A stretch of DNA of 64,000 bases from positions 1-64,000 of the forward strand of contig RBNJ01000010.1 in NCBI GenBank assembly GCA_003990765.1, in the 5' to 3' direction. The position numbers and the translations under genes were made by a program. Positions 1-55,899 of this stretch are shown in pieces (position 1 is the first letter of the stretch; each line of letters opens with the position of its first letter). Origin of the DNA: Jimgerdemannia flammicorona (Eukaryota). The notes under the pieces are model-generated. The model saw nothing but the letters and a program-made list of their open reading frames with translations, made no database searches and was not told the origin of the DNA.

Positions 1-541
1 ATCTGATAGCTTATTCTATAATCTTGCATATACTCTTAGAATCTGATATATCAGTAAGGGTTTCTAGCTCAGATTAGGATAATTAATAAATTCCATAATA
101 GGGTGAGTTTGAATCAGGAATAGTCTCAATACTATATTCTACTATTCAAACTAGTAGTAGTTCTTGAAATTCTTGAAAAACATCTTCATATTCCTTGAGA
201 AGTTCTTGGAGATTGTCTTCCTTATTATCTTTATCCTTTAGAAGTTCAGAAAGCTCTTTATCATTATCTTCTGGGGTCTTCTTAACTCTATATACATATT
301 GTAACAGTGACCTCAGAATGATGACATCAGTACAGGAGACAGCCTTTCCTCACAAGCCACCAGATCAGAGCACAAGGAGATCATACAGCATATGAGATGA
401 GCAATGATGACCAACTGTGAGTCATTGTGACCACAGTACAAGTATCTTGAGGAATATAAAAGAAGGATTAAGGAACTGCAGTAGCAGCAACTAACAAGAC
501 TCACTAATCCCAAAATAGCCCAAAGACTTACCACAAACAAA

Positions 542-1354
542 ATGCCTACTGCTCACCAAACCTCAAGGTCAAGGAACCACCAAGGCATCTCAGTCAAGGA
601 AAAGATATTCCAAGACATCAGAAGAGCCATGAGGACCTGCTCCTAGTATCAACCTAGGTACTGCAGATCCCTATCACTTTATCCTCTACCACCATGAAAT
701 GGAAACAAGGATCACCATTGCTACTGAATGCCTCCAAATGTGGCAGGAGTATGAAATAGGAAACCTCCTCTGCCAGGAGTTCTCACAAGCCAGTCCTCAA
801 GAGCTACAAGATACCACTTCCATGGATATATGTAAGGCAAGGACAGCTAAAAAGATCCATCAGATCTTCAGGCATGCACCATGGTCAATCTCCAACTTGG
901 AGTATATTAGAGTCTCAGATTTCAGAGACCTATCATCTTACCATATCAATGTACTAGAAACTAGAGTAGCTACAGAAGCCCAGTCCACTATCACCCTCAA
1001 TAGTGATGAAGTAGAAGACTTCTGGCACCCCATCCTCCAGGATAACTCAGACCAATTCCTACAAGGGTTGATCTCAGTATTCTAAGGCCCAAGCATCCAG
1101 ATTAGACCTTCCCAAGACCCCACATTTGTCTCTTATTTTGTGGAAGAGAACCTCATAGATTGGAGAGCCCCTGATTTCCCCACTCCAAATGTGATGACAT
1201 TATCAGCAATGATGTCATCTCACATCATATCGAAGTATATGAAATGTACAACATACACAAGATGCACAATCTGCACAATGATAAATTCACAGATCTCATC
1301 TCCTTCAGTGACAATGAGGATGAAGCCCCCATGATCCTGAACTTTCTGCTCTAA
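542..1354 (+). pseudogene. ORF-X accessory gene inside the 5' LTR of A
   Basis: MPTAHQ...PMILNFLL*; its stops and indels are at different positions from those in the 3' LTR copy. Confidence 0.8.
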
Positions 1355-1362
1355 GTTCTTTA

Positions 1363-1500
1363 TTACACTGAATAATGCCAGCATCAGAATTTTGATGTAA
1401 CACTGGATAATGCCAGTACTGGCATTCTGAGGTGATGTGAAATTGTTTCAGCACTGGTATTCTGATGTGATACTGAATTATACTAGCATCCTGAACCTGT
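1363..1500 (+). repeat. 35-bp tandem repeat, about 4 units, in the LTR of A (second copy ~8574-8711)
   Basis: Units start at 1363, 1398, 1433 and 1468 (e.g. TAACACTGGATAATGCCAGTACTGGCATTCTGAGG). Confidence 0.85.
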
Positions 1501-1832
1501 ACAACCATCAGTGCCAACTCTGGAACTTAGTAGTTTTAGTTATTGGAATTTATATTTAGCTTTATATCTTAGCAACCATTGAATTATATTTTGTATAAAT
1601 ACCCCTCTTATTTTCTCTGAAATAAAGTCAGTCTTCTTAGTACAATACATACAATCCCTTGCAAGCAATCTAAGAGATAACAAGACAGTTAAAGATAAGA
1701 AGTTTGAGGACTATAAAACCTTGGGAAGGTACTCTAATAAGAACTTGCTTATAACAAACTTGAGTTAGTCTAAGAGATACATCTTGAAGAGAATCTGGCA
1801 TATTGGAAGAACTCAGCAACCACTATGTGACA

Positions 1833-1893
1833 ACTTGGTACCCATTGGCTGGTGATTCAAGATAAATCCCTCACTTTCAAGCTGAAAAATGAA
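1833..1893 (+). promoter_or_regulatory. Primer-binding site and leader of A, nearly identical to 16008-16068 of B
   Basis: ACTTGGT(A/G)CCCATTGGCTGGTGATTCAAGAT(A/G)AATCCCTCACTTTCAAGCTGAA directly follows both 5' LTRs. Confidence 0.85.
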
Positions 1894-1952
1894 CAACCCC
1901 CACAACAACTACCCTGACTACAAGAGTCACCTCTGCAAGAATTCAAGATAAG

Positions 1953-4900
1953 ATGGAAATGTGTCCCCCCATATTCTATGAATATACTACTGAAGAGTCA
2001 ATTCTGACCTTCATTGAAGACTTTGAACAATTTGCTGCCATATGAGCCCTTGATGTAGATGCACAATTGGCCCTTCTACCACTCAGCCTCAGAGGATCTG
2101 CCAGAGATAAGTTCAATGCAGCCACCATTGCTGATGCTGGTGCAGCCAAACTTGCCAATATGAAGGCCTTTCTCAGAACAACATATTATACTGAAGAGAT
2201 TAAGCAAGCTCTCAAGGACCAACTCAATACTATCTGCCAGAGACTTAGTGAAGATCCCAACTCATTCTATATCTAAATCTGCCACCAGATTGTCTTGGCT
2301 GGCTATGATGACTGCCTCAAGGAACAAATAGTAGATTCAACCTTCCTCAAAGGAGTTTACTCTGAAATTGCCCTAGCAATCTGGTCTACCCTAGCTGCAC
2401 TGACCCTTGATCAGAAAGTGGTCTTTGCACAGAGATATTGGACTGCCAGACACTCTGCCAAACACTCAATGGAGAAAATAACTGGCATCAAGATGGAGCC
2501 ATCAAAGCCAACTAGTATCATACTCACCACAGTTGTAAACAAACAACCAACCCCACCTACCCCCAAGATAGCCAAAGCTGACCCAGTGGAAGAACTTACC
2601 AAGCAGTTCGCTGAGATGACTGCACACCTTGGTGATGTTGTTAGAGAAGTCCAAAGTACTAACAGGAGACCAGTGCAGAGATTTGCAGCTGCTACAGAAG
2701 AATGCAATATCACATGCTTCAGATGTGGAGAAGAAGGCCACTATGCAAAGAGTTGCATAACTGAAACAAGATGTAAAGCCCAATCAAGCAATGCTAGTAG
2801 AACCAGAGAACAAACCAATGCAGTAGTCATTGAGGAGATTGGTGACACTGATGATGAAGAATACTACAAGAAGCTCGAATTCTACCCTGCTACTGAAGGT
2901 ACCAGAACCTGGTCCAAGCCCTATGACAAGAAGAGCAACAGCAAGCCAGTTAGAAGACCAAAGAAGACCCTAGCTGTCACTATTCAAAGTAAGACCCAAC
3001 TTGAGGAGATTGATCAAGATATGGAGTTAGATGAAGCTATCTGTCAAATCATTAAAGGCACTACTCCAGTCTCAGGAGAAAGTGAAAGCAAGAAGGAATA
3101 GAAGCTATGCAAGACCAAGATCCACCAGTATGACATCTACAAGGACCTCAAGAAACAGAAAGTCAATGCTACTTTTGGACAACTAGCCAAAGTCCCTGCC
3201 TTTAGACAGCAGTTGAGAGTAGGACTTACAACTATCACCAAGAATCAAGAGTACAAGATTGTAGAAGCTCACAATATATAGGAAGAATCTGAAGACCAGC
3301 ACAAGACATCAGCTTATACCCCATATCAGATTGAAGACTGTATCTTTGATACCATCATTGATACTGGTGCTGGAGGATGCCTCATGAGCAAGAAGGCAAT
3401 TGACCACCTAGGCTGGGACATTGAAGAGTCCACCAAGATGGTCTATATCATGGCAGATGGTACATGAGCTACCCCTCTTAGCAAAATCCAAGAAGTCCCC
3501 ATTAAGATAAGAGGAGCTATCATCCCAGTAGATGTGATTGTCACAAGTACCACTAACTATAATATCCTCATTGGCAACCAATGACTTCACAAGGCCAAGG
3601 CCATTATTGACCTCAATGTCCAGAAGATGCAGATCAACTATAGAGGAAGAAAGGTATGAGTCTCTATCAATGTCCACAAAGGAGTTCTATCAGATATAGA
3701 GGAAGGAGATGAGGAAGACACAGAGATCTTCATGTACTTAGTGAACAAGAACAAGAACAAGACACTCAAGCTCACAGATGAGCAGTAGTAAAACAAGATC
3801 ATCAATGGCTATGCCTCTCAAGAAAGATGCCCCCATGGTACTAGGATGTACTGCTCTGAACACCTGAATGACTGCTGGTCCTGTATTAGTGAAGTCAGAA
3901 AAATCCACCAACAGAAACATGAGCAAGAAGCTGCCAAAGCAAAAAGGAAAGCCAAAGAAGATGACCAGCCCCCAGAGCTTCAGGCTGACAGTAATGATGA
4001 GGAGGAACAAGAATCAGACATCACCCTCAAGGTTAAGAAGTTTCACCCTGAAGCCAAGATCCCAGAATAAAAGACCAAAGAAGCCATAGGAATGGACCTT
4101 GCCAGCATTTAAGATGCTACCCTTGAATCACAGACCACCACCCTACTTGGCACTGGAATTGGAGTCAAGCTGTCAGAAAACTATGCTGGAATTATCAAGA
4201 CTAGGAGCAGTCTGGCCAAAAGCAAAATCTCAGTTGAAGGAGGAGTAATTGACCCTGATTATACTGGCAAGATCTTTCTCATAGTCAGAAATCACAACCA
4301 TACCACCCCCTTCAAAGTTAAGAAGTATGACAGGATTGGCCAGATGCTGATCCATGAAATCAAGAAGCCCAAGATCATTGAAGCCATTGAACTCATCAAG
4401 ACCAAGAGAAGAGAACAAGGCTTTAGATCTACTAGAAGAGGAGCCTATGATACTACCAAGATTACCAAACTTAAGCACAAGAAAGACAAGGACCAGAACA
4501 AGCACACATATACCATTGGAGAGAACTTTCTTCTGGAGGAACAACTTCTCAAGATCCTGCACCAGAATGAAGGAGTACTTGCTACAGACTTTAGGGATAT
4601 CTACAATCAAGAACCTAAGTACTATCACAAAGTTGACACTGGTGATACCAAGCCCATTTACCAGAAAGCCTGATCCATACCATCTGCCTACAGAGAGTGG
4701 CTGTGAGCAGAACTCAAGGAAATAGAAGAAGCTGGAATCATCAAGCAAGCTATCAGCCCCTGGGCCTCACCCATTATTCTTGCCTCGAAGAAAGAAAGCA
4801 AACCTGGAGAGTTTGTGCTAAGACTCTGTATTGACTACAGGAAGCTCAATGCCATCATCAAGAAGGATAGACAGCCCTTGCCAAATATTCAAGAAATTCT

Positions 4901-5924
4901 TACCACCCTTGGAAGTGAAGCCAAATACTATACCACCTTGGATCTGTTCTCAGGCTTCCATCAGATAGGTCTCATATAAGATGCCAGTGAGAAATCAGTC
5001 TTTATTACACCTGATACCACCTATATCTATCTGTGAATACCATTTGGAATGTGCAATGCCCCAGTAAGTTTCCAGTGAATGATGAACAGAGTCTTCAGCA
5101 ATGAGATTGGAAAATGGCTCTTTGTCTATGTTGATGATGTGATCATCTTTAGCAATACTGTACGAGAATATGTCAATCACATACAGCTAGCCCTCAAGAA
5201 ACTCAAGGAGTATGGCCTCTACATCAAGCCCAAGAAATGTAAGTTTGAAGCTCAAGAAATTGCCTATCTAGGACACCTCATCAACCAGACTGGAATCCAC
5301 ACAGACCCCATGAAGATCAAGGCTGTTGTAGCCTACCTGAGACCCAGGACAACCACAGAAGTCCATGCCTTCCTTGGACTGGCCAGCTACTACAGAAGGT
5401 TCATCAAAGGATATTCCAACATTACAGCACCTATCTATGAGCTACTGAAGAAGGAAACCAAATTCAAATAGACCAAGGAGTACCAAGAAACCTTCAATGA
5501 ACTCAAGACCAGATTGATCCAAGCACCTATCCTCAGAAGACCAGATTGGAACCTAGAATTCATCCTGCAGACAGATGTGAGTACTATAGGACTTGGAGCA
5601 GTCCTAGCTCAGAAGAAAGATAGACATGAATATGACATCTCCTATGCAAGCTGAGGTACCTATAGAGTAGAACAGAACTACAAGTCATGCAAGCTTGAAT
5701 GCTTAGCAGTAGTTTGGACAGTAGGCAAGTTCCACTACTACCTAGCTGGGAAACACTTCACTATTCAAACAGACCACTCTGCTCTTGCCTGGCTATTCCA
5801 CACTCTGAACCTCAAAGGAATATATATCAGATGGATCTACAGGCTGCAAGAGTATGACTGCACTATCAAGTACTACTCAGGAATGACCAACACCAATGCT
5901 GATGCACTCTCAAGGACACCCTGA
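1953..5924 (+). pseudogene. gag-PR-dUTPase-RT-RNaseH polyprotein of A, one frame with internal stops
   Basis: Zinc knuckle CFRCGEEGHYAKSC; protease IIDTGAG; RT YVDD; RNase H LQTD...ADALSRTP*; ORF-track fragments 2067, 2295, 3846, 4344 and 5079 are all in one frame. Confidence 0.95.
4020..4437 (+). pseudogene. dUTPase domain of A (between protease and RT)
   Basis: Trimeric dUTPase motifs GMDL, RSSLA, GGVIDPDYTG, RIGQML, RREQGFRST. Confidence 0.92.
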
Positions 5925-5949
5925 AACACCCCCATCAAGACCATTCAAT

Positions 5950-7200
5950 ATGAATAAGGAGCTATACTATGGATTAATCAGCTACCTTGGGCAGCAGAAG
6001 ATGCCCAACCATTTTGAACCCTGAACAATCACTATCATCAACTAGACTTGGAAACAGTTTGAACTAGACAATACTACACTCAGAAAAGGAGAAAAGCTAG
6101 TAATATCCAAACACAAGAAGTATCAAGTAATAAAGGAAGTATATGAGCAAAGATACTTAGGAGGAATCAACACATATGACAAGGCAAGAAGAACCATATG
6201 GTGGTCCAAGATGGAAGAAGACCTGTAACAATTTGTCAAAGAGTATGACAAGTGCCAAAAACAGAAATAAGATCAGCAAGACCAGGCACCTGGGTCATCA
6301 AGAATTGAGTCTATCCCCTTCCACCACATTGCAATAAATATCATTGGACCACTACTAGTAATAATATTAGGAAACCACTATATTATAGTTATTGTAGACC
6401 TCTTCACCAAATGAATAGAGGCAGGAGTATTACAAGAAGCCAATGCCCTCTCTATAGCTGACTTCCTATACCAAGAAATCATTTGCTACTACAAGGTATC
6501 AAAGTAAATCACAACAGACTGTAGCATGGAATTCATCAATAGATTCCATGAGATAATGTATCAGAAATACAAGATTTAGCACATCAAGACCACCGCATAC
6601 TACCCTCAAGGAAATGGACAAATAGAGAGAACCAACAAGACCCTCAAGAACATCCTAGCAAAGATCTCAGAGACATACATATGAGAATTGGGATAACTAT
6701 CTCCCAACTACCCTCTCTGTCCTATGAGATATATGGTCACAGAGCACACACTTTACCCAAGAGAGCTGCTCTTCAGAGAAGAAGATTCTGATGGAACCTT
6801 AGCTATAAATCTAGACCTAACTTAGAGATAGGTTGATGCAGAAATCTGGAGACTATATCAAATCAGGAAGAAGGCTGAAGATTACATCACCAAGTCACAA
6901 GCACTGACAAGGAAGAATGTGGAAAAGAATCACAAGGCCCTAGAATCCATCTGAATCAGAGAAAAGGTTCTACTGTATCGAAATATGGTAGAAGCCTCAT
7001 GGTCATGAAAACTGGAGCCCAAATGGGAAGGACCCTTCTATGTGCAAGATATTAAGGGAACCACCTTCTGGCTTAGAAAAATCTCAGAGACTATACTGCC
7101 TACCATGGTACATAGGAACAGACTCAAGAAGTACCATGAACCTATACAAGAGAAGCAAAATGTGATGATCACCCATGAGGTTCTAGTCCACAAATCATAA
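5950..7200 (+). pseudogene. Integrase of A, in the +1 frame relative to RT-RH
   Basis: Starts MNKELYY; WWSKM, IIGPL, VDLFTK, PQGNGQIERTNKTLK, KLEPKWEGPFY motifs. Confidence 0.9.
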
Positions 7201-7513
7201 CAGCATGTTCCATAACCAGCAGGCTATCTGTCTGGACCATTCTCTAAGAGATATGGCACTAGCAACTACTCATCCATGAGACTTTCAAAGTCAGAGGAGT
7301 TCGAACTGTCAACTGATTGGTTAAGATCAGAATCAGGCCCTTGCTCTATATGAAGGGAGTAACTCTTCACCATTATGCCAAAATACAAAGGGAAGATGCC
7401 AGTCCATAAATACCACTTTTCAACCCCTTGCCAGAGGTTATGGGATTGGCAAATTTTTCAAAACTAGACCAATGAATAAGGACACTCAGGAAGATCCTTA
7501 TTCAGGAGGAAGA

Positions 7514-9043
7514 TGTAACAGTGACCTCAGAATGATGACATCAGCACAGGAGACAGTCTTTCCTTACAAGCTACCAGATCAGAGCACAAGGAGATCATAC
7601 AGCATATAAGATGAGCAATAATGACCAACTGTAAGTCATTGTGACCACAGCACAAGTACATTAAGAAATATAAAAGAAAGATTAAGGAACCACAGTAGCA
7701 GCAACCAACAAGACCCACCAATCCCAAAATAGCCCAAAGACTTACCACAAATGAAATGCCCACTGCTCACCAAATCTCAAGGTCAAGGAACTACCAAGGT
7801 ATCTCAGTCAAGGAAAAGATGTTCCAAGACATCAGAAGAGCCATGAGGATCTGCTCAAGAAGGACTTCTAGTGTCAACCTGAGTACTGCAGATCCCTATC
7901 ACTTTATCCTCTATTACTATGAAATGGAAACAAGGATCACTATTACTACTGAATACCTCTAAATGTGGCAGGAGTATGAAATAAAAAACCTCCTCTGCTG
8001 GGAGTTCCCACAGGCCAGCCCTCAAGAGCTACAAGATGGTACTCCCATGGATATATGCGAGGCAAGAACAGCTAAAAAGATCCATCAGATCTTCAGGCAT
8101 GCACCATAGTCAATTCCCAACTTGGAGTATATTAGAGTCTCAGATTTCAGAGACCTATCATCCCGCCATATTAATGCACTAGAAGCCAGAGTGGCTATAG
8201 AAGCCCAGTCCACTATCACCCTCAATAGTGATGAAGTAGAAGACTTCTGGCACCCTATCCTCCAGGACAACCCAGACCAATTCCTACAAGGGTTGATCTC
8301 AGTATTCCAAGACCCAAGCATCCAGGTTAGACCTCCCCAAGACCCCACATTTGTCCCTTATTTTGTGGAAGAGAACCTTATAGATTGGAGAGCCCCTGAT
8401 TTCCCTACTGCTGAATGTGATGACATCATCCCACATGATAGTGAAGTATGCAAAATGTGTGATATATGTGAGATGCATGATCTGCATAATAACGAATTCA
8501 TGGATCTCATCTCCTTTAGTGATGACGAGAATGAAGCCCCCATGATCCTGAACTTTCTGCTCTAAGTTCTTTGTTATACTGAATAATGCCAGCACCAGTA
8601 TTTTGATGTAACACTAGATAATACCAGCACTGGCATTCTGAGGTGATGCGAAATTGTTCCAGCACCAGTATTCTGATGTGACACTGAATTATACCAGCAT
8701 TCTGAACCTGTACAACCATCAGTACTGATCCTGGAACTTAGTAGTTTTAGTTATTGGAATTTATATTTAGCTTTATATCTTAGCAACTATTGAATTATAT
8801 TTTATATAAATACCCCTCTTATTTTCTCTGAAATAAAGTCAGTTTTCTTAGTACAATACATACAATCCCTTATAAGCAATCTAAGAGATAACAAGACAGT
8901 TAAAGATAAGAAGTTTGAGGACTATAAGACCTTGGGAAGGCACTCCAATAAGAACTTGCTTATAACAAACTTGAGTTAGTCTAAGAGATATACCTTGAAG
9001 AGAATCTGACATATTTGAAGAACTCAGTGACTACTATGTGACA
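7514..9043 (+). repeat. 3' LTR of A
   Basis: Preceded by the PPT and followed by the ATAT duplication. Confidence 0.97.
7756..8565 (+). pseudogene. ORF-X inside the 3' LTR of A (269 codons, two C>T/G>A stops)
   Basis: One frame; TAA at 7960 and TAG at 8107 are CAA and TGG in the 5' LTR copy. Confidence 0.85.
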
Positions 9044-9814
9044 ATATAGTCTGATTTCTAAATCAGTTTCTTCATCTGAATAGCAGAAATAACATCACAT
9101 CTGGGTTTTGTTTTCTTCATAGTATGCTTGAGTTGTAACTTGATATCTCTCAGAGAGATTATATTGGTTTACTAATTGATATAGGGGTTCTCCTATATAA
9201 GTCAGAATTTTTCAAGAATGAGGTTGTGTCCAGAGAGATGTGTAATGTAGAAGGTTTACCTTATAGTATAGTTCTGAATTATAGAAGTGCATTTTTGTAT
9301 ATTTAGAGAGTTTCTATATTATTCTATTTTCAAAAGTAGCAATGCTTCTTTCTGGATTCCTTTGCATCTTAAGATGGATTTTGTTAGTAGTTTCTTAATC
9401 AAGATAGCATTTGCTTTCTCCACTGTCAATAAGAACTTCAATAGAGTTTCCTTCAATTTTTCTTAGAAGGTAGATATATTCTATATTGGTTTCTTACTAG
9501 GTGGTGATGGTTTCTGAAGTAGTTTCTTCTTTCTAATCTTGTACTTCTCTATCTTTATCATTGATGTTCTTGATTTCTTCATCTTATAATTCTGGGATCA
9601 TTGGCTTATACTTCTTGGATTTAAGAATACATATGATATATTCTCTTATATACTTGAAACAGTATATCTTAATTTCATATAGATATTATCTTGTAGAGAT
9701 ATATCTGTTGGCAATATACTGATACATAGCATTTCTGGTCTCAGTCTTGAGATTCTTCAATGTGGACAATCTTCTGTACCTTGGTTTTCTCTTTGGCTTT
9801 ATCAGAGTACTTCT

Positions 9815-15060: not shown

Positions 15061-16106
15061 GCACCCTGATAAGACTAAGGAAAAGGCTAAGATATAGAAA
15101 ATTATCTACATTGAAGAACCTCAAGATAGAAATCAGAAATAATATCAGCACATTATTGATAGATATATCCATGAAATTAAGAGATACTGTTTTAAATATA
15201 TAAGAGAATATATTATATATATTCTTAAATCTAAGAAGTACAAGCCAATTATTTCAGAATAATTGAATAAAGAAATCAAGAGTATCAATAATGAAGATAA
15301 AGAAGCACAAGATTGAGAAGAGAAAACTACCCTAGAAATAATCACTGTCTGGTAAGAAATCAATATAAAATATATCTATCTATAAGGAAAATTGAAAAGA
15401 ACTCTGTTGAAGTCCTTATTGATAGTAGAGTAAGCAAGTGCTATCTTGACTAAGAAACTGCTGACAAATTCCACCTCAAGATATAAAGGAACTCAGAAAG
15501 AAATATTGCTACATTTGGAAATAGAAAAATACAGAAACTCTTTAAGATATTGTGATAGTATAGCCAGATTTGGAAGAAGGAAATAGAGAACAGATACTTG
15601 ATTGCACCCAGTCCCAAAGTAGTATAGCCACATAGTTAGTAGTCTCTGATTTCACCATTTGCTAAATATTTCGCAAAGTGCGAGATCGAGCTTCTTGATA
15701 TAGTATAGCATTTCGCAACTGGCGAAATATTTTACAAAGTGTTAAATGACTCATAACCTAGCCACATAACTCAGTAACCATCTCATAGCTAGCAAACTTG
15801 TATAAATAATCCAGTATCTTCAAGTGAATAAAACCTCAGATCAAAAGTGTTAGAAAAAGAACAAGTATACCAATAAAGGGACTTTCGGGATTATCTCTTT
15901 AAACACATTTGGCCTCAAGGAACTACCAACTCTGGGAGTCAAGAAGATAAGAATTTAAGATAAAGAAATCTGACATACTTGCCTATCTTAGCATCTACTA
16001 TATTACAACTTGGTGCCCATTGGCTGGTGATTCAAGATGAATCCCTCACTTTCAAGCTGAACAATGAATAACCGCAACAAGAACCCACACAATACAATCA
16101 GACAAA

Positions 16107-19100
16107 ATGGATATGAGACCACCTGTATTCTATAGATATACCTCTGATGAATCAATCATCACCTTCATTGATGATTTCGAGCAGTATACCACTGTAAGGA
16201 CCTTAAGTACAGCACAACAAGTTGTCTTACTCCCTGTAAGTCTCAGAGGCCCAGTAAGAACTGCATTCACCATGACTAATGTACAAGAAGCCAATAATCC
16301 AGCAAGAATTCTGGCTTTCAAGACCTGGCTCTGAGCAACCTACTATACAGACGAAATCAAACAAGCACTCAAGAATCAATTGAATACTATCTGCCAAGAA
16401 ATATCCAAAGACCCAAATATATTTTACACAAGAATCCGATACCAAATAGTCCTTGCTGACTACCCAGATGCAGTTCAGGACCAAGTGGCCAAGAATACCT
16501 TCATGAAGGGTATTCATCAAGAAATTGCCTTAGCTATCTGATCCACCCCAATGGCACTGGACCTAGCACAAAAGGTTACCTATGCCCAAAGATACTGGAC
16601 CACTAGACACCCTCAAGGCCACACGATGGAAAGAATAATAGGAGTAAAAATTGAACAAGCACCAAGGATCACCAATATAGTTCTAACTACTATAGTCAAC
16701 AGGAATACATAACTACAATCCCAACTACAAGAGCAAAGAAGAGCCAACCTAATGGAGGAACTGACCAAGCAGTTCACAAAAATGACCGTACACCTCAGTG
16801 ATGTGGTCAAGGAGTTCAAGAAGAAACCAGTACGGAAATTTGCAGCTACTTATGATAGATGATCAGTAACCTGCTACAGGTGTGGAGAAGAAGGCCATTA
16901 TGTCTCCGATTGCATGACAGAAACCAAGCGCAAGGCCAATCCAAGTAATCCAATCAGAAACCATAAACAGGCAAATACTATCACCTTTGAAGAGATTGGA
17001 GAATCTGAAGAGGAAAGGGAGGAATGGGAAGCTTATCCTACTACTACAAGTAAGAAGAATGTCCAAACCAGTCCCTACAAAAAACCTCCAGACAGACCTC
17101 CTAAGAAGGTTCAGATACTGATAAAACAACCAGAAACAGTCATCGAAAAGGAAATCTAGCAGACTGAAGCTGATCAAGATATGGAACTAGGACAAGATGC
17201 TGAACTGGAGTGAGCAGTAGAAGATATCATTCAAAATACCACCCCATCAAGTGAAGGAAAGAAGGAACAGAAATTGTGCAAGAGCAAGACCTTTAAGTAT
17301 AATATCTTCAAGGATCTCAAGGACCAAAAAGTAAATATAACCTTTGGCCAGCTAGCTGAAATCCCAACATTCAGACAGCAAATGAGAATGGAGATATCTG
17401 ATATTGAAAAGGATCAAGGCTACAGAATCATCGAAGCCAATAATGCACAAGAAGATTCTGATGAAGAAAGTGAAGATAATCGGAAGACATCAGCCTATGC
17501 TACCTGCCAGATTGAGGACCGAGTCTTTGAAGCTATCATTGATACAGGAGTAGGAGGATGTCTCATCACCAAGAAAGCAGTAGACCGCCTAGGCTGGGAG
17601 ATAGAAGAAGCCACCAAATTGGTGTTTGTCACAGCTGATAGAACATGAGCAATACCTCTGAGAAAGATCCAGGATGTACCTATCAAGTTTGGAGAAGCTA
17701 CCATCCCAGTAGATGTCATTGTCATAAATGCAACCAACTATGATATCCTCATCAGCAATCAATGACTTTACAAAGCTAAGGCAATGATTGATCTCAGTGC
17801 ACAGAAGATACAAATTGTCTACTGGAGAAAGAAGATCAGAATTCCCATCAATGTCCACAAAGGAGTCTGCCCTGAGATGGAGGAATAGCAAGAAGAAGAA
17901 GCCTACATGATTACCATAAAGAAGGGAAAAGGTAAGCAGTTGACAGAGGGGGAATAGTATAGGAGGATCACAGACAGATATGCCCCACTAGGAAGGTACC
18001 CCCATGATGAAAGAATGTACTACATCCAGCACTTGGATCACTGCTACTCCTGCATCATCAAGGTGAAAAAGATCACCAACAAGCCAAAGAAGAACCAGAA
18101 GGAACCAGAAAATAGACCACTAGAGCTATTGGATGACAGTAATAATGAAGAAGACATCACAGTCTAGATATGAAGGATTCACCCCAATGCAGTCATGCCA
18201 CAGTACAAATCAGAGAATGCAGCAGGAATGGACCTGTCTACCACAACATACACAACTCTTGAACCACAAACCACTACTATACTGGGAATAGGAATCGAAG
18301 TAACTATCCCACCAAATCATGTTGGAATCCTCAAGACAAGAAGCAGCTTAGCAAAGAGTAAAATATCCATAGAAGGAGGAGTCATTAATTCAGACTATAT
18401 AGGAGAAATTCTCCTCCTCACCAGGAATCATAATCCAACAATCTCATTTGAAGTAAGAAAGAAGGATTGGCTGGTGCAAATGCTCATCTTACCTGTCCTT
18501 AACCCAAGAATCAAGGAAGTTGCAAACATCAGACAAACTCAGTGAGGAAGAGCTGGATTCAGCTCTACAGGAAGAGGAGTCCTTGTAGCAACCAAGATTA
18601 CTGAATTGGAGCACAAGAAGGAGGAAAGCCAAGACAAACACACCTATGCAATTAGAAAGAACTTTCCCCTCAGGAAGGAGTTGCAGAACCTCTTGCATAT
18701 ATTTGAAGATGTACTGGCCATAGATTTCAAGGACATCAAGACCAAGAAACTCTTGTACTATCATGACATCAATACTGGAGATGCGAAACCAATCTATCAA
18801 AAAGCCTGCCCCATTCCACCAGCATACAGGAAATGGCTCAAGACTGAAATCAAGGAAATGGAGGAATCTGGTATCATCAAGGAAGCCAGCAGCCCTTGGT
18901 CTTCACCTATTGTCCTTACACCAAAGAAAGGAAGCTGACCAGGAGAATTTGCACCAAGACTCTGCACAGATTATAGAAGACTCAATGAGGTCACAGAGAA
19001 GAATAGACAACTATTGCCCAATATTGGTGACATTCTTATCATGTTGGAGAATGAATCACGATTTTATACCACTCTAGATCTGTTCTCAGGATTCTACCAA

Positions 19101-20060
19101 ATTGGCCTTACACCTGAAGCCAGCAAAAGATCAGTCTTCATCACTTCTGATAGAACCTATGTCTATCTCCGCATGCCTTTTGGAATGTGCAATGCACTAG
19201 CAAGCTTTCAGCAAATGATGAATAGCATCTTCAGGGATATTATGGAAAAATGGATGATGGTATATGTGGATGATGTGATCATTTTTAGCTGAATAGCTAA
19301 GGAGCACTTGGAACATATTGAGGAAATCCTCAGAAGGCTTCACAAAAATGGCCTCTACATCAAGCCCAAGAAATGCAAATTTGGAGAAGAAGAAATCACA
19401 TACCTCGGACACATCATCAACCATGAAGGAACACACACAGATCCCACAAAGATCAAGGCAGTAGCAGCATACCCAGTACCTACCAGTGTCACTGAAGCCC
19501 GAGCCTTCATGGGACTAGCATCCTATTACAGGAGATTTATTCGAAGATTCTCCCACATTGCCAGCCCTATCTATGACCTGTTCAGAAAAGAGGTCAAGTT
19601 TCAGTGGACACAACAACAGCAACTAGCCTTCGATGAACTCAAGATCAGGCTGACCCAGGCCCCAATCTTGAGAAGATCTGACTGGACATGAGAATTTATT
19701 CTACAGACAAATGCCAGTATAATGGGACTTGGAGCTGTCCTTGTACAGAAGAAGAATGGCACCGAGTATATGGTAGCCTATCTCAGCCAAGGTACTCATG
19801 GAGTAGAGCAGTCCTATGAGTCATACAAGCTAAAATGTCTTGCAGTCATCTGGGCTGTAGAGAAGTTCCACTATTACCTGGCAGGAAGATACTTCACCAT
19901 CCAGACAGACCACTCAGCACTTACCTAGTTGCTCACCACTAGTGAACCCAAAGGAATCTATGCCTAATGGATCATGAAGCTACAAGAATATGATGCCACA
20001 ATCACTTACCACCCCAGAAGAACCAATGCCAATGCTGATGCCCTCTCACAGACACCCTGA
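16107..20060 (+). pseudogene. gag-PR-dUTPase-RT-RNaseH polyprotein of B, one frame with no net indels
   Basis: CYRCGEEGHYVSDC, IIDTGVG, YVDD, ADALSQTP*; ORF-track fragments 16107, 16914, 17274, 18195, 18606, 19014, 19308 and 19722 share a frame. Confidence 0.95.
18160..18575 (+). pseudogene. dUTPase domain of B (between protease and RT)
   Basis: AAGMDL, RSSLA, GGVINSDYIGEI, LVQML, (R)GRAGFSSTG. Confidence 0.93.
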
Positions 20061-20085
20061 AGGACCCTACCCCCACAAAATCATC

Positions 20086-21276
20086 ATGAATAGGGAGCTG
20101 TACTATAGAATCATCAGCTACCTGGGGCAGCGAAAGATGCCCCCACATCTGGAAGAATGAACAAAAACAATTATTAATCAGACATGGAAACAATTCGAAA
20201 CTGATGGAGAAATATTCAAGAAAGGATAACAATTAGTCATCCCTGAGCACCAGAAGAATCAAGTAATGAAAGAAGTATATGAACAAGGCCATGTAGGAGG
20301 AACAAATACATATGACAAAGCAAGAAGAACCATGTGGTGGCCCGGAATGGAAGAAGATATCAGACAATTCATCAGAACCTGTGATAAATACCAGAAACAG
20401 AAACAAGACCAATGAGATCAAGCCCCCAGATCAGCAGACATCAAACCAGTACTATTTGCCCACATAGCAATAGATGTAATTGGCCCTCTACCTTTGACAT
20501 TAACAGGCAACCGATATGTCATCATGATTGTAGACCTATTCACAAAATAGGTAGAAGCTGGACCCCTCAAAGAAACCAATGCACAGTCAATTGCTGATTT
20601 CTTTCACAGAGAAATCATCTGCCAATTCAAGACCCCAAAACAAGTTACTACAGATAGAGGAACAGAATTCATCAACCAGTTCTATGAGACTCTGTATAAG
20701 AAATATAAGATCCAGTACATCAAGACCACAGCTTATCACTTGTAAGGAAACAGACAAGTAGAAAGAACCAACAAGATCCTCAAGAACATTATTGCCAAGA
20801 TCTGTAATGAATATGGAAACTGGGACCACTATCTTCCAATAGCATTATCCACTCTGTGGGACATATGATCACAAAGCACCCACTTCACACCACAAGAAAT
20901 GCTGTTTGGAGAAGAAAGTTCTAGTGGAAGTTTGTCAGTAAATAATAATGCAGTCTGGAAGCATGTGGACATGGAGATACAGAGATTGCATCAAATTAGG
21001 AAAAAGGCAGAGGATTACATAATCAAGGCACAGGCACTACAATGGAGCAATGTGGAAAAGATCCACAAGCTCCTAGAGATTATCAAAATAGGAGATGAAG
21101 TTCTGGTGTACTGGAATATAGTAGAAGCTTCTTGGTCATAAAAACTGGAGCCCAAGTGGGAAGGACCTTACCTGGTGCAAGATATAAAAGGGACCACTTT
21201 TCGACTATGAAAGCTCTTAGGCATAATAATCCCCACCACCATTCACTGAAACTGACTCAAGAAATATCATGGCTAA
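20086..21276 (+). pseudogene. Integrase of B, in the +1 frame relative to RT-RH
   Basis: MNRELYY...GHVGG...WWPGM...IDVIGPL...TDRGTEF...VERTNK...KLEPKWEGPY...KKYHG*. Confidence 0.92.
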
Positions 21277-21730
21277 TAACAAAAGTACTGTGATGGCACT
21301 CAAGATCACTAGCACTGCCCAAAGAGCCATCAAGAGACAATGGCATACCACTGAGCCTCTGACCATAGAGGAGTCTTATGATAGTATCCAAAGCATTATG
21401 TAGACTCATCTCTCTCGGATCTCACACTTCAAGGCCTATCAGCATCAAAATGAATTTCAAGAGTACTTCAAACTTGGCCAAGTACTCAACCAAGATCCAG
21501 AAATGACCAAAGAAAATTGGATCGCAGAATGCCAGCTCTCCTATTCCCAGATTACCATTGTTAAGAGAATCTACAAGCTATTCTGAGAGGATGAACCAGC
21601 ACTAGCCCATCTGTGAGGAGTGACTCCCTCAGACTTTGACCAAGTCAGGCGATACCATTGGGAAACAGTAATGCAATAAATCACACAATATAAGACCATA
21701 CAGACCATTGAAGCCTGGGAGTTTGAATAG
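21269..21730 (+). pseudogene. ORF-X accessory gene of B (153 codons; ATG overlaps the end of integrase)
   Basis: One frame with four stops, each explicable by C>T; MALKITSTAQRAIKRQW...EYFKLGQVL...KRIYKLF...GVTPSDF. Confidence 0.8.
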
Positions 21731-24145
21731 ATACTTCAAGGATGAGATCATCTATTCAGGAGGAAGTTGTGATGGTATAGCCAGATTTGGAAGAAGGAAA
21801 TAGGGAACAGATACTTGATCGCACCCAGTCCCAAAGTAGTATAGCCACATAGTTAGCAGTCCCTGATTTTGCCATTTGCTAAATATTTCGCAAAGTGTGA
21901 GATTGAGCTTCTCGATATAGTATAGTATTTCGCAACTAGTGAAATATTTCGCAAAGTGTTAAATGACTCATAACCTAGCCATGTAACTCAGTAACCATCT
22001 CATAGCTAGCAAACTTATATAAATAACCCAGTATTTTTGAGTGAATAAAACCTCAGATCGAAAGTATTAGAAAAAGAACAAGTATGCCAATAAAGGGACT
22101 TTCGGGATTACCTCTTTAAACACATTTAGTCTCAAGGAACTACCAACTCTGGGAGTCAAGAAGATAAGAATTCAAGATAAAGAAATCTGATGTACTTGCC
22201 CATCTTAGCATCTGCTATGTTACAATATATAAGAATACATTTTTACAACTTAGAAACTACACTACAAGATAAACCTTCTATATAGCACATCTCTATGAGT
22301 ATAATCTCATCTTTGGAAAATCCTGGCTCACTTAAGAGAACCCTTATATTGATTGGCAAATTAATATAATCTCTCTAAGAGATATCAAACTACAACCTGA
22401 ATACACTAAGAAGAAACCAAAGCCCAGATGTGATATTATATCTGCTATTCAGATAAAAAAGCTAATTTGAAAGTCAGACCAGTATATCTATATATACACA
22501 GTCAAGAAACCCTCAGAAGAAGATAATGAAGAACTCTCTGAACTTCTGAAGGATGAAGATGATAAAGAAGACAACCTCCAAGTACTACTTAAGAAATATG
22601 AAGATATTTTCCAGGAATCTTAAGAACTACCACTAGTTTGTACAGTAGAACATAGCATTGAGACCATCTCTGGGTCTGATCCTCTCTACTGTGGAATCTA
22701 TCAACTAGCCTAACCTGAGTTAAAAATCCTCAAGGAATAACTAGCAGAATTAACAGCAAAGGACTCATCTATCTATCAAAATTTCCATATAGTATACCAA
22801 TTCTTTTTATCTACAAAAAGGATAAAAGTCTCTAAATATATATTAATTACTAAGTACTCAACAAGATCTCAATCAAAAACTAATATATACTTCTAAAAAT
22901 TGATGAACTACTTGATTAAGTATGTATATAAGGTCAAGACCTTCTCACTTATTGACCTTATATTTAGATATTATCAAATTTGTATTAAAGAAGAAGATAT
23001 TTCCAAGACAGCTTTTTGAATAAGATTTGGATATTATAAATTCTGTGTGATGCCATTTGGCCTTACTAATATACCAGCAACCTTCCAAATACTGATAAAT
23101 GACATTTTCTAAGAATATCTTAGAGTTTTTATTCTAGTCTATCTATATGACATTCTGATATATAGTATGAGCAATATCATTTATTAATAACATCTATAGA
23201 TAGTCTTTGATATACTTCAAGAATACAAGCTCTCAGTAAAAAGAAAAAAATGTTATTTCTTCAGAAAGGAAATTTAATACTTAGGTTAAATTATCTCTGA
23301 AAATAATATTACTATTGATCCTAAAAAAATCCAAGCAATCTACAATTAGCTCATTCTGAAGACCCTCAAGTCTCTATGAGAATTTAATAGACTAATAGAA
23401 TATTATAGGAGATCTACATATTTAAGAATTCTCTGCAATTGCTACTCTACTCACAAGTCTTACTAAGAAAGGAGTCAATATCAAAAATGAATAAACAGAA
23501 GTATATACTATAGTTATAAATACTCTCAAGAGAATACTGACAAATATATTAATTCTGATCAGCCCCAATTCAATAGGACTCTTTGTAGTTACTACTGATG
23601 CTTCAAACATTATCATTAGAGCTGTCTAAACTCAATATAAATATCTTATTATCTATCTATCTCAGAAACTTAATAAGTATAAAAGAAACTGCACCATATA
23701 AGACAAGAAACTCCTTGCTATTATCTGATCTCTGTAAGTATAGAGACATTTCCTCCTTAGTAAAAAGTTCACCTTATGGATAAATAATCAAGCCCTTTGA
23801 TATATCCAGATATAGCCAATTCTCACAGAAAGATAGATCTGATAGATATAGATTTTTATACCTTTTGATGTTAAAATCAAACATATTGCTAGAACTAAGA
23901 ATAAAGTAGCTGATACACTCTCTCAAAGTACTCAGAAGGATGACCTTATAGCAATTAGCAACATCATTACCAGTCTATTTGAGGAAGTCAAAAAGGAGTA
24001 CATATATCAAGGATACCAATATATATATAAGAAATTACTAGACAAATTCTTAAAGAAGACAATAATATTATAAAGAATATCTACAAGAATGTATTTATTC
24101 AAAATAGATATATATATCTTGACAATATAAGAATTTAAGTTACTG

Positions 24146-27100
24146 TATAATAGAATGAATGAATGAGATATAACATACAATAAGTGATCACATGTTCTGG
24201 TGATGACATCATAATTAAGCATAATATATAAATGACAAATATAATAAATATAATGAATGAATGATGTGAATAAATAATATTCAGCTTATCTCCTGCAATC
24301 AGTACTATAGCAACTAGTACCATAGTAACTAGTACTATAGTAACTAATCATTGTCTAACAATAAAGGTCATAATTACAAACATTACCATAGTTATCAAAT
24401 TAGTCACTTATACTTAATCTGAAATTACAAACCAACTTGTATAAATATCTCCCAGTTTCTATCTAAAATAAAGCAGTTTTAGTTCAGTCCTTAATATAAT
24501 AATCAAGTTTCTCTCTCTATACATATATTCTCCTGAGTCTTAGTAATAATATTTAAGTAACTCTAGTATTTCTGACTAAACTTCAGAAGTCTAGCTAACT
24601 TCTGCCAGAACTGAGACTAATATATAAATTACAAAGACTTAAGTAAACTCATTGAACCTGAATTCCAAGGCAAATTCAGTCTATGTATAACAAAGAATAA
24701 GTTTCTTACAACTATAGTTAATAAGAAGGGTACTATCACTATAACTACTTTTAAGTAAATATTTCTTCACACCAAAGACTTCTTAGTATATATTATATAC
24801 TAAGTCTCTAAGTAATATCTTGTTTCTCTAATTATCCAAAGAATAAAAGAGAAGTAGAAATAAGAGTTATTATAACTTAGTAGTAGTAGAATTATCAATC
24901 CAAAAAGACATCAAGAATACACTTCTGAGAAGTTAGAATAAGACCAACCTTGGATAGCCCTAGAATCAACTGTAGATTCCCTAGAAATAAACCCCCAAAC
25001 TAGAGCTAGACAAGCTATTACTATTAGAACTAGGTGGTATCAGGAAACTATTGATCCAGAAATCCATCAGCTAGTAATTGACCAGATATACAGAGATCTA
25101 TATGAGGCCTTTAGGACTTTCTACCCAGGTCTTAAGAATATAGTCAGCTACTGTAGATTCTACATACTTCTCTATAACCACCTTAGAACTACTAGAATCC
25201 AAGAATCTACTATTATAGTCATCTAGAAATTTTTAAACTATATCTTATCCCATATAGTAAAAGAAGCAGCTACTAAGTAGATGGCATCTGATAGATATCA
25301 TCATACTTCTACCAGGACCTCTCTCTACTATAGACTAGTTATTTACTATGCCTCTGCTATAACAAGATATGATAACAAGCAAGCAGGATACCCACCCCCT
25401 ACTGCAGGTCCATCTATCTAGCCAGAATCTGATATCCTCTTTGAAGGACCTAGTTAATATGAGGATGCACTATCTCATCAGAGAAGAGAGTCAGATGAAG
25501 ACTCAGAAGAATATTAGTCTGATGATAGCTAATAAGAAATAGTAGGCCTAGAAATTTACCAAGGACCTACAGGTCAAGAACATCAGACCCCAGAACCAAT
25601 CCAGCCACCTATACAGAGGTTTGATTTACCCTCTCTTACAGGACTGTTTGATCTGATCTTTGAGAACCAAGTAACTCCAAGTCATATAGCACTATAACCT
25701 CACTAAGAAGAACAATCTTTAGAAGAATCTACCTCCATAGATCCACCACTAATAGTCAATATAATAATAGATACCAATATTGCAGCCCTGACTACCCAGC
25801 TGGCTATACTAGCAGAGATAGTAGAACAAATTGCCATATAGAACAAAATCAACCAAGACCTTGTGAATTCCTACCTTTAGTAGAAGAAATAGTAATATTG
25901 AGACCTTCATCAATACAGTTGATACAGAGTACTGAGCAAACCAATGGAATGATAACTGAGTATCTACAGAAATACTCACCAACAATCAAGACAATATTCT
26001 TCAATAGCTATTTGCAATATTAGTAGCATAAATAGAAACAGTAGCCATATTCTTTACTAGAATAGCAGCTGAGTTCTAGTGTACTTTAGAAGAATATTCA
26101 GTAACTTAGAAAGACTACTCTCAAGTCAATAGACAGACACTTGCCCATAACAGACTAGGTTGAGATGACCATACAGCAGGCCCAGGACTCAAGGCTTTGC
26201 TACTGACCAAATTCCAAAATATAGCCTATATATAAGAAATATGAAACAAATTAGCTCAGATGAAGTTCTATAAGAATAGTAAGGAGAATCTAGAAACCTT
26301 TACTACTAAGATAGATGTCTACCTCAAAATTATGGAACTTACCTACTAGGAAAACAATTTGGCCATTAATGATACTAGAGCTAATCATCTCTTTACAGCC
26401 CTACCAGACTGACTCACTCAGAAGATTAAGGAATAAGGTCCCCCCCAAGGATGTCTCCACTACTTATAGTACTTTGCCCAGATACATATGATATAAGGCT
26501 ACCATCCCCACTAAGACCTATTCTACTGATACTGGATATAACCTCTATAGTAGCCAAGACCTCACTATATGACCAAGTACCAATGCTATAATATATTCTG
26601 GAATTGCAATATAAGTCTCCAAAGAAACATACATTCATCTTGCTGAATGAAGTAGCCTGGCCAAAGAATTCAACATTGGACTAGAAGGAGGAGTAGTTAA
26701 TTAAGGATTTACTGGTGAAATTCATATTATCTTGTAAAATTTTGAAGATATCTCATTTGAAGTCAAAGTAGACCAAAGAATTACCCAAGCAATTATTGAA
26801 GAAATCCATCAAGATCTCTCCATTAAAGAAGTTCCTAAGCTCTCCCAGACAGACTATAGCAAGAAAGGATTTAGATCAACCAACAAACCCCCTAGTCAAA
26901 AGTTTACCACTATGAAGGAAGATGATGAAAACTAGTACAAGAGAATTATAGATAGTTATGTATCATATAGATGATGCCCTCATTCTATCCAAATGTACTG
27001 CATGGAATATATTAGTAAATACCATACATACCTCTCCAAAGTTTTCAGAATCCAATCTGAAAAATACCAAGTTCAATAGACTGAGGAACTTAAACAAGAC

Positions 27101-54299: not shown

Positions 54300-55899
54300 T
54301 AGTGACAGCCAAAACTGTAACAATATTTAGTTATTTTTTATATATAATTATATTATAGCTTCAATATAAATACAATAAAATCCAAATTTTTACCATTAAT
54401 AATATAGTATCTTAGCTTTTGAATAGTATATTTTTTATTTTATTTGGATAAATATAGATATTAATATAACCATTTTAAGTTATATTACCATTGTTACAGT
54501 TTTGACCCTCTTGGCCATCCAAATCTGTTTGGGTTCACCACATGCTATTAAGTTGGGCTATAATTATCCACTTTTACTACAGTGTTGTTTCAGACATTCT
54601 TTACTACTCTATGGTGCTTTGCCATCATTTTCAAGCAATGAAAAAGCTTTCTGTCGACATTCATAACCATATCATCCACTTACTGCAATCTGGTTTATCC
54701 ACATGTAAGATTGCCAAAGAAACCAATGTGAGTGTGATGACAGTAAACCATGTAAAAACGGTGTATTGCAACAATATTCCTTCATCAAAAGGTGGTCATC
54801 CAGCTATGTTTTCAGCCCAGAATGAAGCATGGATTACCTGCCAAGTTATAATTGGCAAAGCAGATAATGTCACCAGAGTCATAAAAGCCCTTCAAGAAAG
54901 TGGCAAAAAGGCGAGTCTTAGTATGATAAAACGAATGCTCTGAAAGACTGGCCTCAAAGCATACGTAAAGCAAAAGAAACCACTTTTGCTGCCTCACCAC
55001 ATAAAGGTGCGCTATGAATTTGCCATGAAATACAAGCATTGGACAGTTGCCAACTGGAAAACCATTGTGTTTTCTGATGAAATGAAGATTAACCATTTGG
55101 GCTCCAATGGATGCAAATGGATATGGCATAAATCAGGCAGTGGTGGAGAGCTCCAACCAAACCAGGTGACTGGAATGCTAAAATTCAGTAGTGGATCATT
55201 AATGCTTTGGGGATATATGACATACAAGGGCATTGGATATATATGCCAAATCGAAGGCCGAATGAATGCCGAATTATATACTAGTATCCTTAGTGATAAA
55301 TTGCTTTGAACGATCAAGTATTACAAACTTAATCAAAAAAAGATCACCTTCCAACAGGATAATGATTCCAAATATACATCCAAAATGGCATGCGAATGGT
55401 TCAAAAACAACTCTATCCACATGTTAGACTGGCCAGCACAATCGCCAGACTTCAACCCCATCGAACATTTATGGTGTGAACTTAAAAAATGGTTGAATGC
55501 ATACGATGAACTACCTAAAGGAATGCTGGAATTATGGGAGTGCATACAGCATGTATGGAATAATATTCCTAAAGATGTTTGTATCAAATTAATTGAAAGT
55601 ATGCCCAGGCGCATTGCAGCAGTATATAAAGCCAAAGGTAGATATGTTAAATACTAAATAAAAATAAATAAGAGGTTTGGATGGCCAAGAGGGTCAAAAC
55701 TGTAACAATAGTAATATAACTTAAAATGGTTATATTAATGTCTATATTTATCCAAATAAAATAAAAAATATATCATTCAAAAGCTGAGATACTATATTAT
55801 TAATGATAAAAATTTGGATTTTATTATATTTATATTGAAGCTATAATATAATTATATATAAAAAATAACTAAACATTGTTACAGTTTTGGCTATCACTA
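54300..55899 (+). mobile_element. Tc1/mariner DNA transposon with 224-bp TIRs (54300-54523, 55676-55899)
   Basis: TA duplication at 54298-54299 and 55900-55901; termini TAGTG/CACTA (decayed CAGTG); near-identical long inverted repeats. Confidence 0.96.
54638..55657 (+). pseudogene. DD34E Tc1-family transposase (339 codons, TGA stops at 54941 and 55307)
   Basis: VFSDE, FQQDN-(34 aa)-SPDFNPIE; one frame. Confidence 0.95.

Follow-up and report, generated by a model that had tools for sequence, protein, structure and literature searches.

The integrase (IN) of retroviruses and long terminal repeat (LTR) retrotransposons is, in the textbook account, cleaved from the Pol polyprotein, and recoding occurs only at the gag/pol border. 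The +1 frameshifting of Ty1 and Ty3 and the shifty stops of antizyme and prfB act between gag and pol or within one gene, yield a fusion product, and use shift sites that are conserved in functional copies. Victoriviruses, which live in fungal hosts, join their coat protein and RNA-dependent RNA polymerase open reading frames (ORFs) by stop-restart at an AUGA, with an upstream hairpin or pseudoknot that stimulates the restart. Here we analyzed two Ty3/gypsy elements, A and B, that lie in the first 64,000 nucleotides (nt) of contig RBNJ01000010.1 of Jimgerdemannia flammicorona (hereafter the window), together with their protein and metagenome relatives. The comparison shows that in the clade of A and B, gag, protease, dUTPase, reverse transcriptase (RT) and RNase H (RH) form one long ORF and IN forms a second, whose AUG overlaps or abuts the pol stop codon.

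Long-ORF reinitiation, as portions of PMC10275272 describe it, takes place where stop and start codons overlap (UAAUG, AUGA) or lie less than 20 nt apart, the start sometimes being upstream of the stop. For calicivirus VP1/VP2 and influenza B M1/BM2, the same portions report overlaps of this kind between ORFs that are out of frame, with the downstream product made in lower amount; the calicivirus efficiency is put at 3-20% (PMC10275272). Kojima et al. 2005, as cited in that text, is the source for a retroelement case, the UAAUG coupling of ORF1 and ORF2 in the non-LTR retrotransposon SART1 (PMC10275272), and an extract of PMC2699510 describes UAAUG stop-restart between ORFs A and B of the fungal hypovirus CHV1.

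Elements A (300-9043) and B (15551-22224), both old and dead, are Ty3/gypsy copies that belong to two related families and are not copies of one family; identity between them is 53% for the gag-pol protein, 59% for IN and about 69% for DNA. Both have the hallmarks of Metaviridae, namely paired LTRs with TG...CA ends, a 4-bp ATAT target-site duplication, and a primer-binding site and polypurine tract that are near-identical between the two. The LTRs of A are 89.5% identical to each other (self-blastn, 300-1833 vs 7514-9044) and those of B 92.6% identical over 459 nt (blastn). Pfam domains occur in the order zf-CCHC, protease, dUTPase, RT and RNase H in frame 0, followed by the IN zinc-binding domain and rve in frame +1. 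The dUTPase, an extra domain between protease and RT, goes beyond the standard Ty3/gypsy order with IN after RT, and its position is shared with basidiomycete PosPlaTy3-5 and the rotifer elements Juno, Vesta and TelKA as characterized in parts of PMC2864245 and PMC5408684. Those parts give the basidiomycete and bdelloid rotifer dUTPase elements as a fused Gag-Pol or as gag, pol and ORF3, and contain no mention of a separate IN ORF (PMC2864245, PMC5408684).

A first-pass annotation of this DNA had placed a programmed +1 frameshift at a CCC-TGA-A between RNase H and IN. Its reading of the letters is accurate: the RNase H frame gives ADALSRTP in A (5898-5921) and ADALSQTP in B (20034-20057), each followed by TGA (5922-5924 and 20058-20060), and IN begins in the +1 frame with an ATG after a 25-nt spacer (5950-5952 in A, 20086-20088 in B). 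At the nucleotide level A reads GCA CTC TCA AGG ACA CCC TGA and B reads ACA CCC TGA before these spacers. To interpret the junction we used two relatives in particular. L005, a metagenome contig, is a far less decayed relative of B with 83.7% DNA identity and an unbroken gag-pol ORF of 1281 codons; P0111 is a pol protein 48% identical to the pol of B, which was queried with its dUTPase-to-RNase H region. The features of the two elements are as follows.

296-299, + strand: ATAT target-site duplication of element A, 5' side, with its partner at 9044-9047; read directly
300-1832, + strand: 5' LTR of element A, TG...CA, with the primer-binding site after it; from self-blastn, ends read
1953-5957, + strand: gag-protease-dUTPase-RT-RNase H of element A, frame 0, with 19 premature stops; from Pfam, natural stop aligned with the L005 stop
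5922-5924, + strand: premature TGA of element A, the supposed shifty stop; aligned with CGA of L005 and R of P0111
5950-5957, + strand: ATGAATAA of element A, the IN ATG (5950-5952) overlapping the pol stop TAA (5955-5957); read directly, same arrangement in L005 and L007
5950-7200, + strand: IN ORF of element A, frame +1, with 13 stops; from Pfam Integrase_H2C2 and rve, end taken from the C-terminus of the stand-alone IN P0001
7514-9043, + strand: 3' LTR of element A, with the polypurine tract just 5' of it; from self-blastn, ends read
15551-16007, + strand: 5' LTR of element B, with its ATAT duplication at 15547-15550; from LTR-pair blastn, ends read
16107-20093, + strand: gag-protease-dUTPase-RT-RNase H of element B, with 19 premature stops and the natural stop TAG at 20091-20093; from Pfam and reading of the junction
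20058-20060, + strand: premature TGA of element B, a CpG-to-TpG decay product of CGA; L005 has CCC CGA AGG at the aligned place
20086-20093, + strand: ATGAATAG of element B, the natural pol stop and, overlapping it, the IN start codon; read directly
20086-21312, + strand: IN ORF of element B, frame +1, decayed; from Pfam, end by alignment with the IN end of L005
21768-22224, + strand: 3' LTR of element B, with its ATAT duplication at 22225-22228; from LTR-pair blastn, ends read

The natural end of pol lies at the IN start codon. In A, B, L005, P0111 and the metagenome locus L007, the RNase H frame continues past the motif (A/V)D(A/T)LSR and ends in ...(Y/H)-E-stop, with a tail of 13 residues in A, B, L005 and P0111 and a longer one in L007. 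The first-pass annotation was right to call both spacers open in the +1 frame; it missed that frame 0 is open too, running 10 codons further to the TAA of A or the TAG of B that overlaps the IN start. In the A/B lineage the junction is AUGAAUAA/G, and the IN AUG opens the motif M-N/D-x-E-L-Y-Y. In L007 the IN frame is interrupted by two stops between the position equivalent to the TGA and the ATG.

What, then, is the TGA? Alignment indicates that in A and B it arose in parallel, by CpG deamination of an Arg CGA codon, and has no function. The junction reads ACA CCC TGA AGG in B and ATG CCC CGA AGG in L005, and P0111 has Pro-Arg at the TGA position. The in-frame stops of B correspond to sense codons of L005 in 28 of 29 cases, and 13 TGA stops of B, the junction TGA among them, align with CGA. 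Among the 27 codon columns with CGA in L005, stops are found at 14 in B and at 4 in A; the two share 3 of them, compared with 2.07 expected if they decayed independently; the shared TGA is thus as chance predicts. The occurrence of ACACCCTGAA in both A and B is due to parallel decay of a hypermutable codon. Shifty stops are present in functional members, at a conserved site with a conserved +1 phase, and need no start codon, whereas here the pol of L005, L007 and P0111 runs on to the stop that overlaps the ATG, the IN phase is -1, +1 or 0 within the clade, and the Met is invariant. With the junction aligned across relatives, neither the site nor the phase of the spacer is conserved, and CCC-TGA-A is not confirmed as a functional site. 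In genomes with heavy decay of CpG generally, an in-frame TGA shared by old copies is to be expected at CGA codons and is by itself no recoding signal.

The decay of the two copies is nearly pure C-to-T and G-to-A change with few indels and strong loss of CpG. Separating the two LTRs of A are 130 transitions, 6 transversions and 3 indels; the observed/expected CpG ratio of the window is 0.20; and the only gaps between B and L005 measure 3, 3 and 6 nt. Of 120 CpGs in L005, 15 are still CpG in B, 54 have become TG and 32 CA. The reading frame changes once per copy across gag, pol and IN (tblastn gives one high-scoring segment pair for gag-pol and one for IN in each), although IN carries 10-13 stops per element and gag-pol about 19. 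Because the decay is almost free of indels, many stops without frameshifts are expected, and this pattern is no argument for function. The frame change reported in the first-pass annotation is real, but the step from the lack of other frameshifts to a non-random origin was weak; that origin is better supported by the stand-alone IN of relatives described below, which indicates that the break between RNase H and IN is ancestral.

We also considered an alternative genetic code for the in-frame stops and rejected it, since one Trp column is TGA in A and TAG in B, the stops of B align with CGA, TGG, CAA and CAG of L005, and the LTR differences are nearly all transitions. A TAG is common to B (20548-20550) and L005 (5074-5076) at a conserved Trp codon of IN where A has TGA; it may come from a common master copy that was already broken, or it may be a third parallel hit.

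Relatives of this integrase are mostly stand-alone proteins. When queried with the IN of B, with X at the stops, 55 proteins of 221-706 residues matched, about 40 of them covering the N-terminus, with 36-86% identity. The stand-alone relatives measure some 370-570 residues and mostly begin at the same Met; one of them, P0001, is 78% identical to the IN of A. In the start column all 30 aligned full-length INs have Met, 28 of the 30 begin exactly there with M-N/D-x-E-L-Y-Y-G-L, and the three fused relatives have T, T and S. Among proteins of 707-2015 residues no match exceeds 29% identity to the IN of B. A HMMER search of 1.84 billion representatives was run with no length filter, and its best 150 matches were considered: the N-terminus (query start at or before residue 24) was reached by 14, all of 233-632 residues and with alignments starting within their first 18 residues, and among these 150 no protein of at least 900 residues aligned before query residue 49. 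On the pol side, no IN domain was found in the closest dUTPase-bearing relatives P0111, P0112, P0113, P0115 and P0116. Four of these five end 13-30 residues past (A/V)D(A/T)LSR, which is VDTLSR in P0111; P0116 has no recognisable form of the motif near its C-terminal end. The ratio of nonsynonymous to synonymous substitution (dN/dS) between A and B, with dS saturated, is 0.125 for IN, 0.173 for RT-RH and 0.201 for gag; in its separate frame, IN evolved under purifying selection.

A scan of metagenome contigs, in which 80 loci were kept of 479 confirmed stretches, covered the RH-IN junction in 42 loci, 27 split and 15 fused. (An IN-alignment scan of viral contigs gave 5 distant loci only, which were not used further.) Examples of the split arrangement with unbroken ORFs are L004, with an unbroken gag-protease-dUTPase-RT-RH ORF of 1746 codons and an IN ORF of 418 residues; L009, with a closed ORF of 1651 codons; and L020, with 1479 codons (5'-open) and an IN ORF of 418 residues. 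These loci with unbroken ORFs are LTR elements, as judged by their terminal direct repeats. The distance from pol stop to ATG is between -7 and +15 nt in 16 of the 27 split loci. The junctions are of the following types.

ATGA: L001, L003, L004, L013, L022 and L023 (6 loci)
TAATG or TGATG (3 loci): TAATG in L006 and L012, TGATG in L011
ATGAATAA/G: L005 and L007 (2 loci, in addition to A and B)
ATGGATCTAG: L009
TGAtcATG: L010
TAA in frame with IN, ATG 9-12 nt later: L049, L059 and L073

Relative to RH, the IN frame is -1 in 18 of the split loci, +1 in 5 and 0 in 4. In a quick maximum-likelihood tree of 40 INs (L005, L009, L013 and L060 were omitted because their IN ORFs were too short), A and B are sisters, with a Shimodaira-Hasegawa-like approximate likelihood ratio (SH-aLRT) support of 100, and fall in a clade of 11 rows, all split (SH-aLRT 89). 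Within this clade the phase is +1 in A, B and L007 and -1 in L001, L003/4, L006, L010-12 and L023; over the whole tree the split/fused character changes at least 5-7 times. The variation of the IN phase between -1, +1 and 0 among lineages excludes one single frameshift site. From these alignments, the frame break is real, ancestral and clade-wide, and what stays constant at the junctions is an AUG placed at the pol stop. The comparison supports the earlier proposal that IN is expressed separately.

A third ORF, of about 200-310 residues, is present in many of the relatives. It is in the +1 frame with respect to IN and shares 26-404 nt with the 3' end of the IN ORF. In six of them its positions are as follows, and Pfam gave no match for these six.

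L003, 5960-6652: third ORF
L006, 3063-3782: third ORF
L010, 2436-3121: third ORF
L011, 2635-3253: third ORF
L012, 1678-2271: third ORF
L022, 3171-4007: third ORF

In A and B there is no room for such an ORF between IN and the 3' LTR. L020, an element without dUTPase, differs at the end of pol, which continues about 315 residues past ADALSR as an acidic and Trp-rich stretch (3494-4441); its IN starts 62 nt after the stop.

How might IN be translated? We lean, on balance, toward termination-reinitiation. In this model IN would be made from the full-length RNA when some ribosomes, having completed pol, begin again at the neighbouring AUG. Since a single ORF spans gag through RNase H, a low efficiency of restart would leave IN as the only product sub-stoichiometric to Gag, RT and RNase H. 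The arrangement has the features described for such systems: stop and AUG overlap or lie no more than 20 nt apart in 16 of the 27 split loci and at the natural stops of A and B, the AUG is conserved, and the placement is independent of the reading-frame relation. Reinitiation at the conserved ATG had been offered in the first-pass annotation as an alternative to frameshifting, and it is the part that fits the comparative data; the pol stop concerned, however, would be the overlapping TAA or TAG and not the TGA 25 nt upstream. The broader statement, that a widespread environmental clade, possibly fungal, has IN as its own cistron and translates it by reinitiation of a type other than that using a TURBS (a ribosome-binding site upstream of the point of termination), after a gag-pol ORF of 1300-1750 codons, we hold more tentatively, at a little under an even chance.

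Several observations weigh against reinitiation. After more than 1300 codons it normally needs an RNA signal, and 15 of 16 junctions lack the UGGGA of calicivirus and influenza B TURBS within 120 nt upstream of the AUG; the clade is not of the TURBS subtype. We folded the region from -100 to +20 nt around the AUG at 14 junctions and compared it with shuffles. No common RNA structure was found there, the z-scores ranging from -2.76 to +1.82; A (-0.15) and B (+1.82) are no better than shuffles in this single window, and the consensus fold of five sequences of the ERLPKGPxF subgroup is about 0 kcal/mol. The spacer is 31-830 nt long in eight split loci (L020, L021, L024, L025 and L029-L032), which come from about four distinct elements or families; coupling is less plausible at these loci, and another mechanism may serve the whole clade. 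The "split" loci L046, L061 and L068 are probably decayed copies of fused elements, near-identical fused sisters being L056 beside L061 and L069 beside L068. At the three in-frame loci (L049, L059, L073) stop-codon read-through is also possible. Finally, we infer that the TGA of A is a decayed Arg codon, and for A the evidence of CGA ancestry is homology to L005 and P0111 and not the DNA of a close relative.

Strong hairpins occur only in L006, L012 and L011. In L006 (1797-1832) and L012 (418-451) the hairpin stops 5-7 nt before the UAAUG, in the region that codes for ...RLPKGPPW/F..., and the outer stem differs between the two at most positions with pairing kept, that is, by compensatory changes. 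The hairpin of L011 is a different one, and L010 and L013 have none.

The alternative that survives best, though we consider it unlikely, is that IN comes from its own RNA or from internal entry, by way of an internal promoter, a transcript that is spliced or subgenomic, or an internal ribosome entry site close upstream of the conserved AUG, with the overlap a matter of genome compaction. This accounts equally as well as reinitiation for the conserved AUG and the frame independence, the failure to find either a TURBS motif or a common structure speaks for it, and the spacers of 263-374 nt in L029-L032 need more than tight coupling. In the same direction points a non-coding motif of about 40 nt, conserved between L030 (4110-4160) and L031 (1236-1290) about 100 nt upstream of the IN ATG; spacers in this subgroup are 278-371 nt, and the possible roles of the motif are promoter, acceptor and entry site. 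An independent RNA or entry site would nevertheless not need an AUG at -7 to +15 nt from the stop, often sharing nucleotides with it, as in the 16 tightly spaced loci. Such stop-start proximity is given as the hallmark of coupled termination-reinitiation in the portions of PMC10275272 that deal with it.

It is improbable that RH and IN are instead fused by frameshifting within the short ORF overlap, +1 in A, B, L005 and L007 and -1 in others. In 14 of 14 clade members examined the open IN frame does extend 10-136 nt upstream of the AUG, reaching into the pol ORF, and a slippery X_XXY_YYZ heptamer lies in the overlap at three of the ten loci with IN in the -1 frame (L009, L012, L013). At the other seven no heptamer is present, however; some overlaps are just 10-19 nt long (L022, L011); split loci outside the clade have no overlap at all (L020, L025, L030-L032); and three loci have IN in frame 0 behind a stop. 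Fusion would also give no reason for the invariant Met (30 of 30), which fused relatives lack, and opposite directions of shifting inside one clade would need repeated re-invention.

Very doubtful, too, is the idea that the frame break disabled IN in the common ancestor and that the elements spread by integrase supplied in trans. Other Ty3/gypsy elements are present in the window (26498-29733, 43524-44747) and could be a source, but the dN/dS of IN is as low as or lower than that of RT-RH, and intact IN ORFs of about 410-450 residues persist in dozens of relatives. As for a programmed +1 shift at CCC-UGA-A of the antizyme/prfB type, in which the tRNA-Pro on CCC could re-pair on CCU, the identity of ACACCCTGAA in A and B and the open +1 frame across both spacers speak for it, and we give it almost no credence in view of the Arg codon in L005 and P0111, the chance level of shared stops, the continuation of frame 0 to the conserved ATG-overlapping stop, the two IN-frame stops of L007 and the varying phase.

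If IN is made by reinitiation, the clade resembles caliciviruses and influenza B in its stop/AUG overlaps. It differs from them in the absence of UGGGA (15 of 16 junctions) and of a shared upstream structure, in the length of the upstream ORF (1300-1750 codons), and in being an LTR retrotransposon. The arrangement resembles that of Ty1/Ty3 in that a retroelement ORF lies in the +1 frame downstream of another; unlike those systems and antizyme or prfB, less decayed relatives do not have the "shifty stop", the phase is variable and there is a conserved AUG. Victoriviruses and CHV1 have the same tetra- and pentanucleotide overlaps, and the hairpins of L006 and L012 lie just 5' of the overlap; unlike in victoriviruses, a hairpin is confined to 2-3 of 14 junctions, with none in A, B or L005. 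SART1 is similar as a retroelement with a UAAUG stop-start overlap (UAAUG in L006 and L012, UGAUG in L011). It couples a gag-like ORF1 to pol, whereas the split described here lies within pol, between RNase H and IN; SART1 also needs a downstream structure, and our folds cover -100 to +20 nt of the AUG only. Caulimoviridae, reverse-transcribing relatives of Metaviridae, likewise have serial, closely abutting ORFs on one RNA according to portions of PMC10275272. Their reinitiation needs a viral transactivator (PMC10275272), and they have no IN; no such factor is evident in the clade, the third ORF of the relatives having no Pfam match.

A search of open-access full-text literature found no title or abstract on an LTR-retrotransposon IN translated from a separate, stop-start-coupled ORF. 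If the arrangement is as we propose, a clade with IN as a separate cistron would change the textbook view and add a way of setting enzyme stoichiometry, with integrase dosage set independently of Gag and RT in elements that lack a gag/pol frameshift. It would also represent a new eukaryotic system of long-ORF reinitiation. The junctions themselves, with three phases and several types of overlap, would offer varied natural material on how eukaryotic ribosomes restart after very long ORFs.

Other parts of the window contain further elements. More distant Ty3/gypsy remnants lie at 26498-29733 (+ strand) and 43524-44747 (- strand); in the first, an RNase H match (28735-28941) and an IN match (29179-29733) are in frame with each other, which is the ordinary fused arrangement. 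Between 36001 and 52000 the ORFs gave no Pfam match, and the GC skew is +0.47 and +0.37 over 36-44 kb, then -0.27 and -0.42 over 44-52 kb. These extreme, opposite skews suggest either strand-asymmetric C-to-T decay or an inverted pair of repeats depleted on one strand. A weak Tc1/Sleeping-Beauty-like helix-turn-helix ORF is found at 54506-54940 (+ strand), and an ORF with a basic helix-loop-helix DNA-binding domain at 60382-60867 (- strand) is probably an exon of a host gene; its closest Atlas clusters are fungal (score 0.84), a weak lead. A and B each sit inside a separate copy of one older repeat (57-298/9049-9500 and 15349-15550/22224-22730); the two copies are in opposite orientation and were entered at different points, with an ATAT duplication in both cases.

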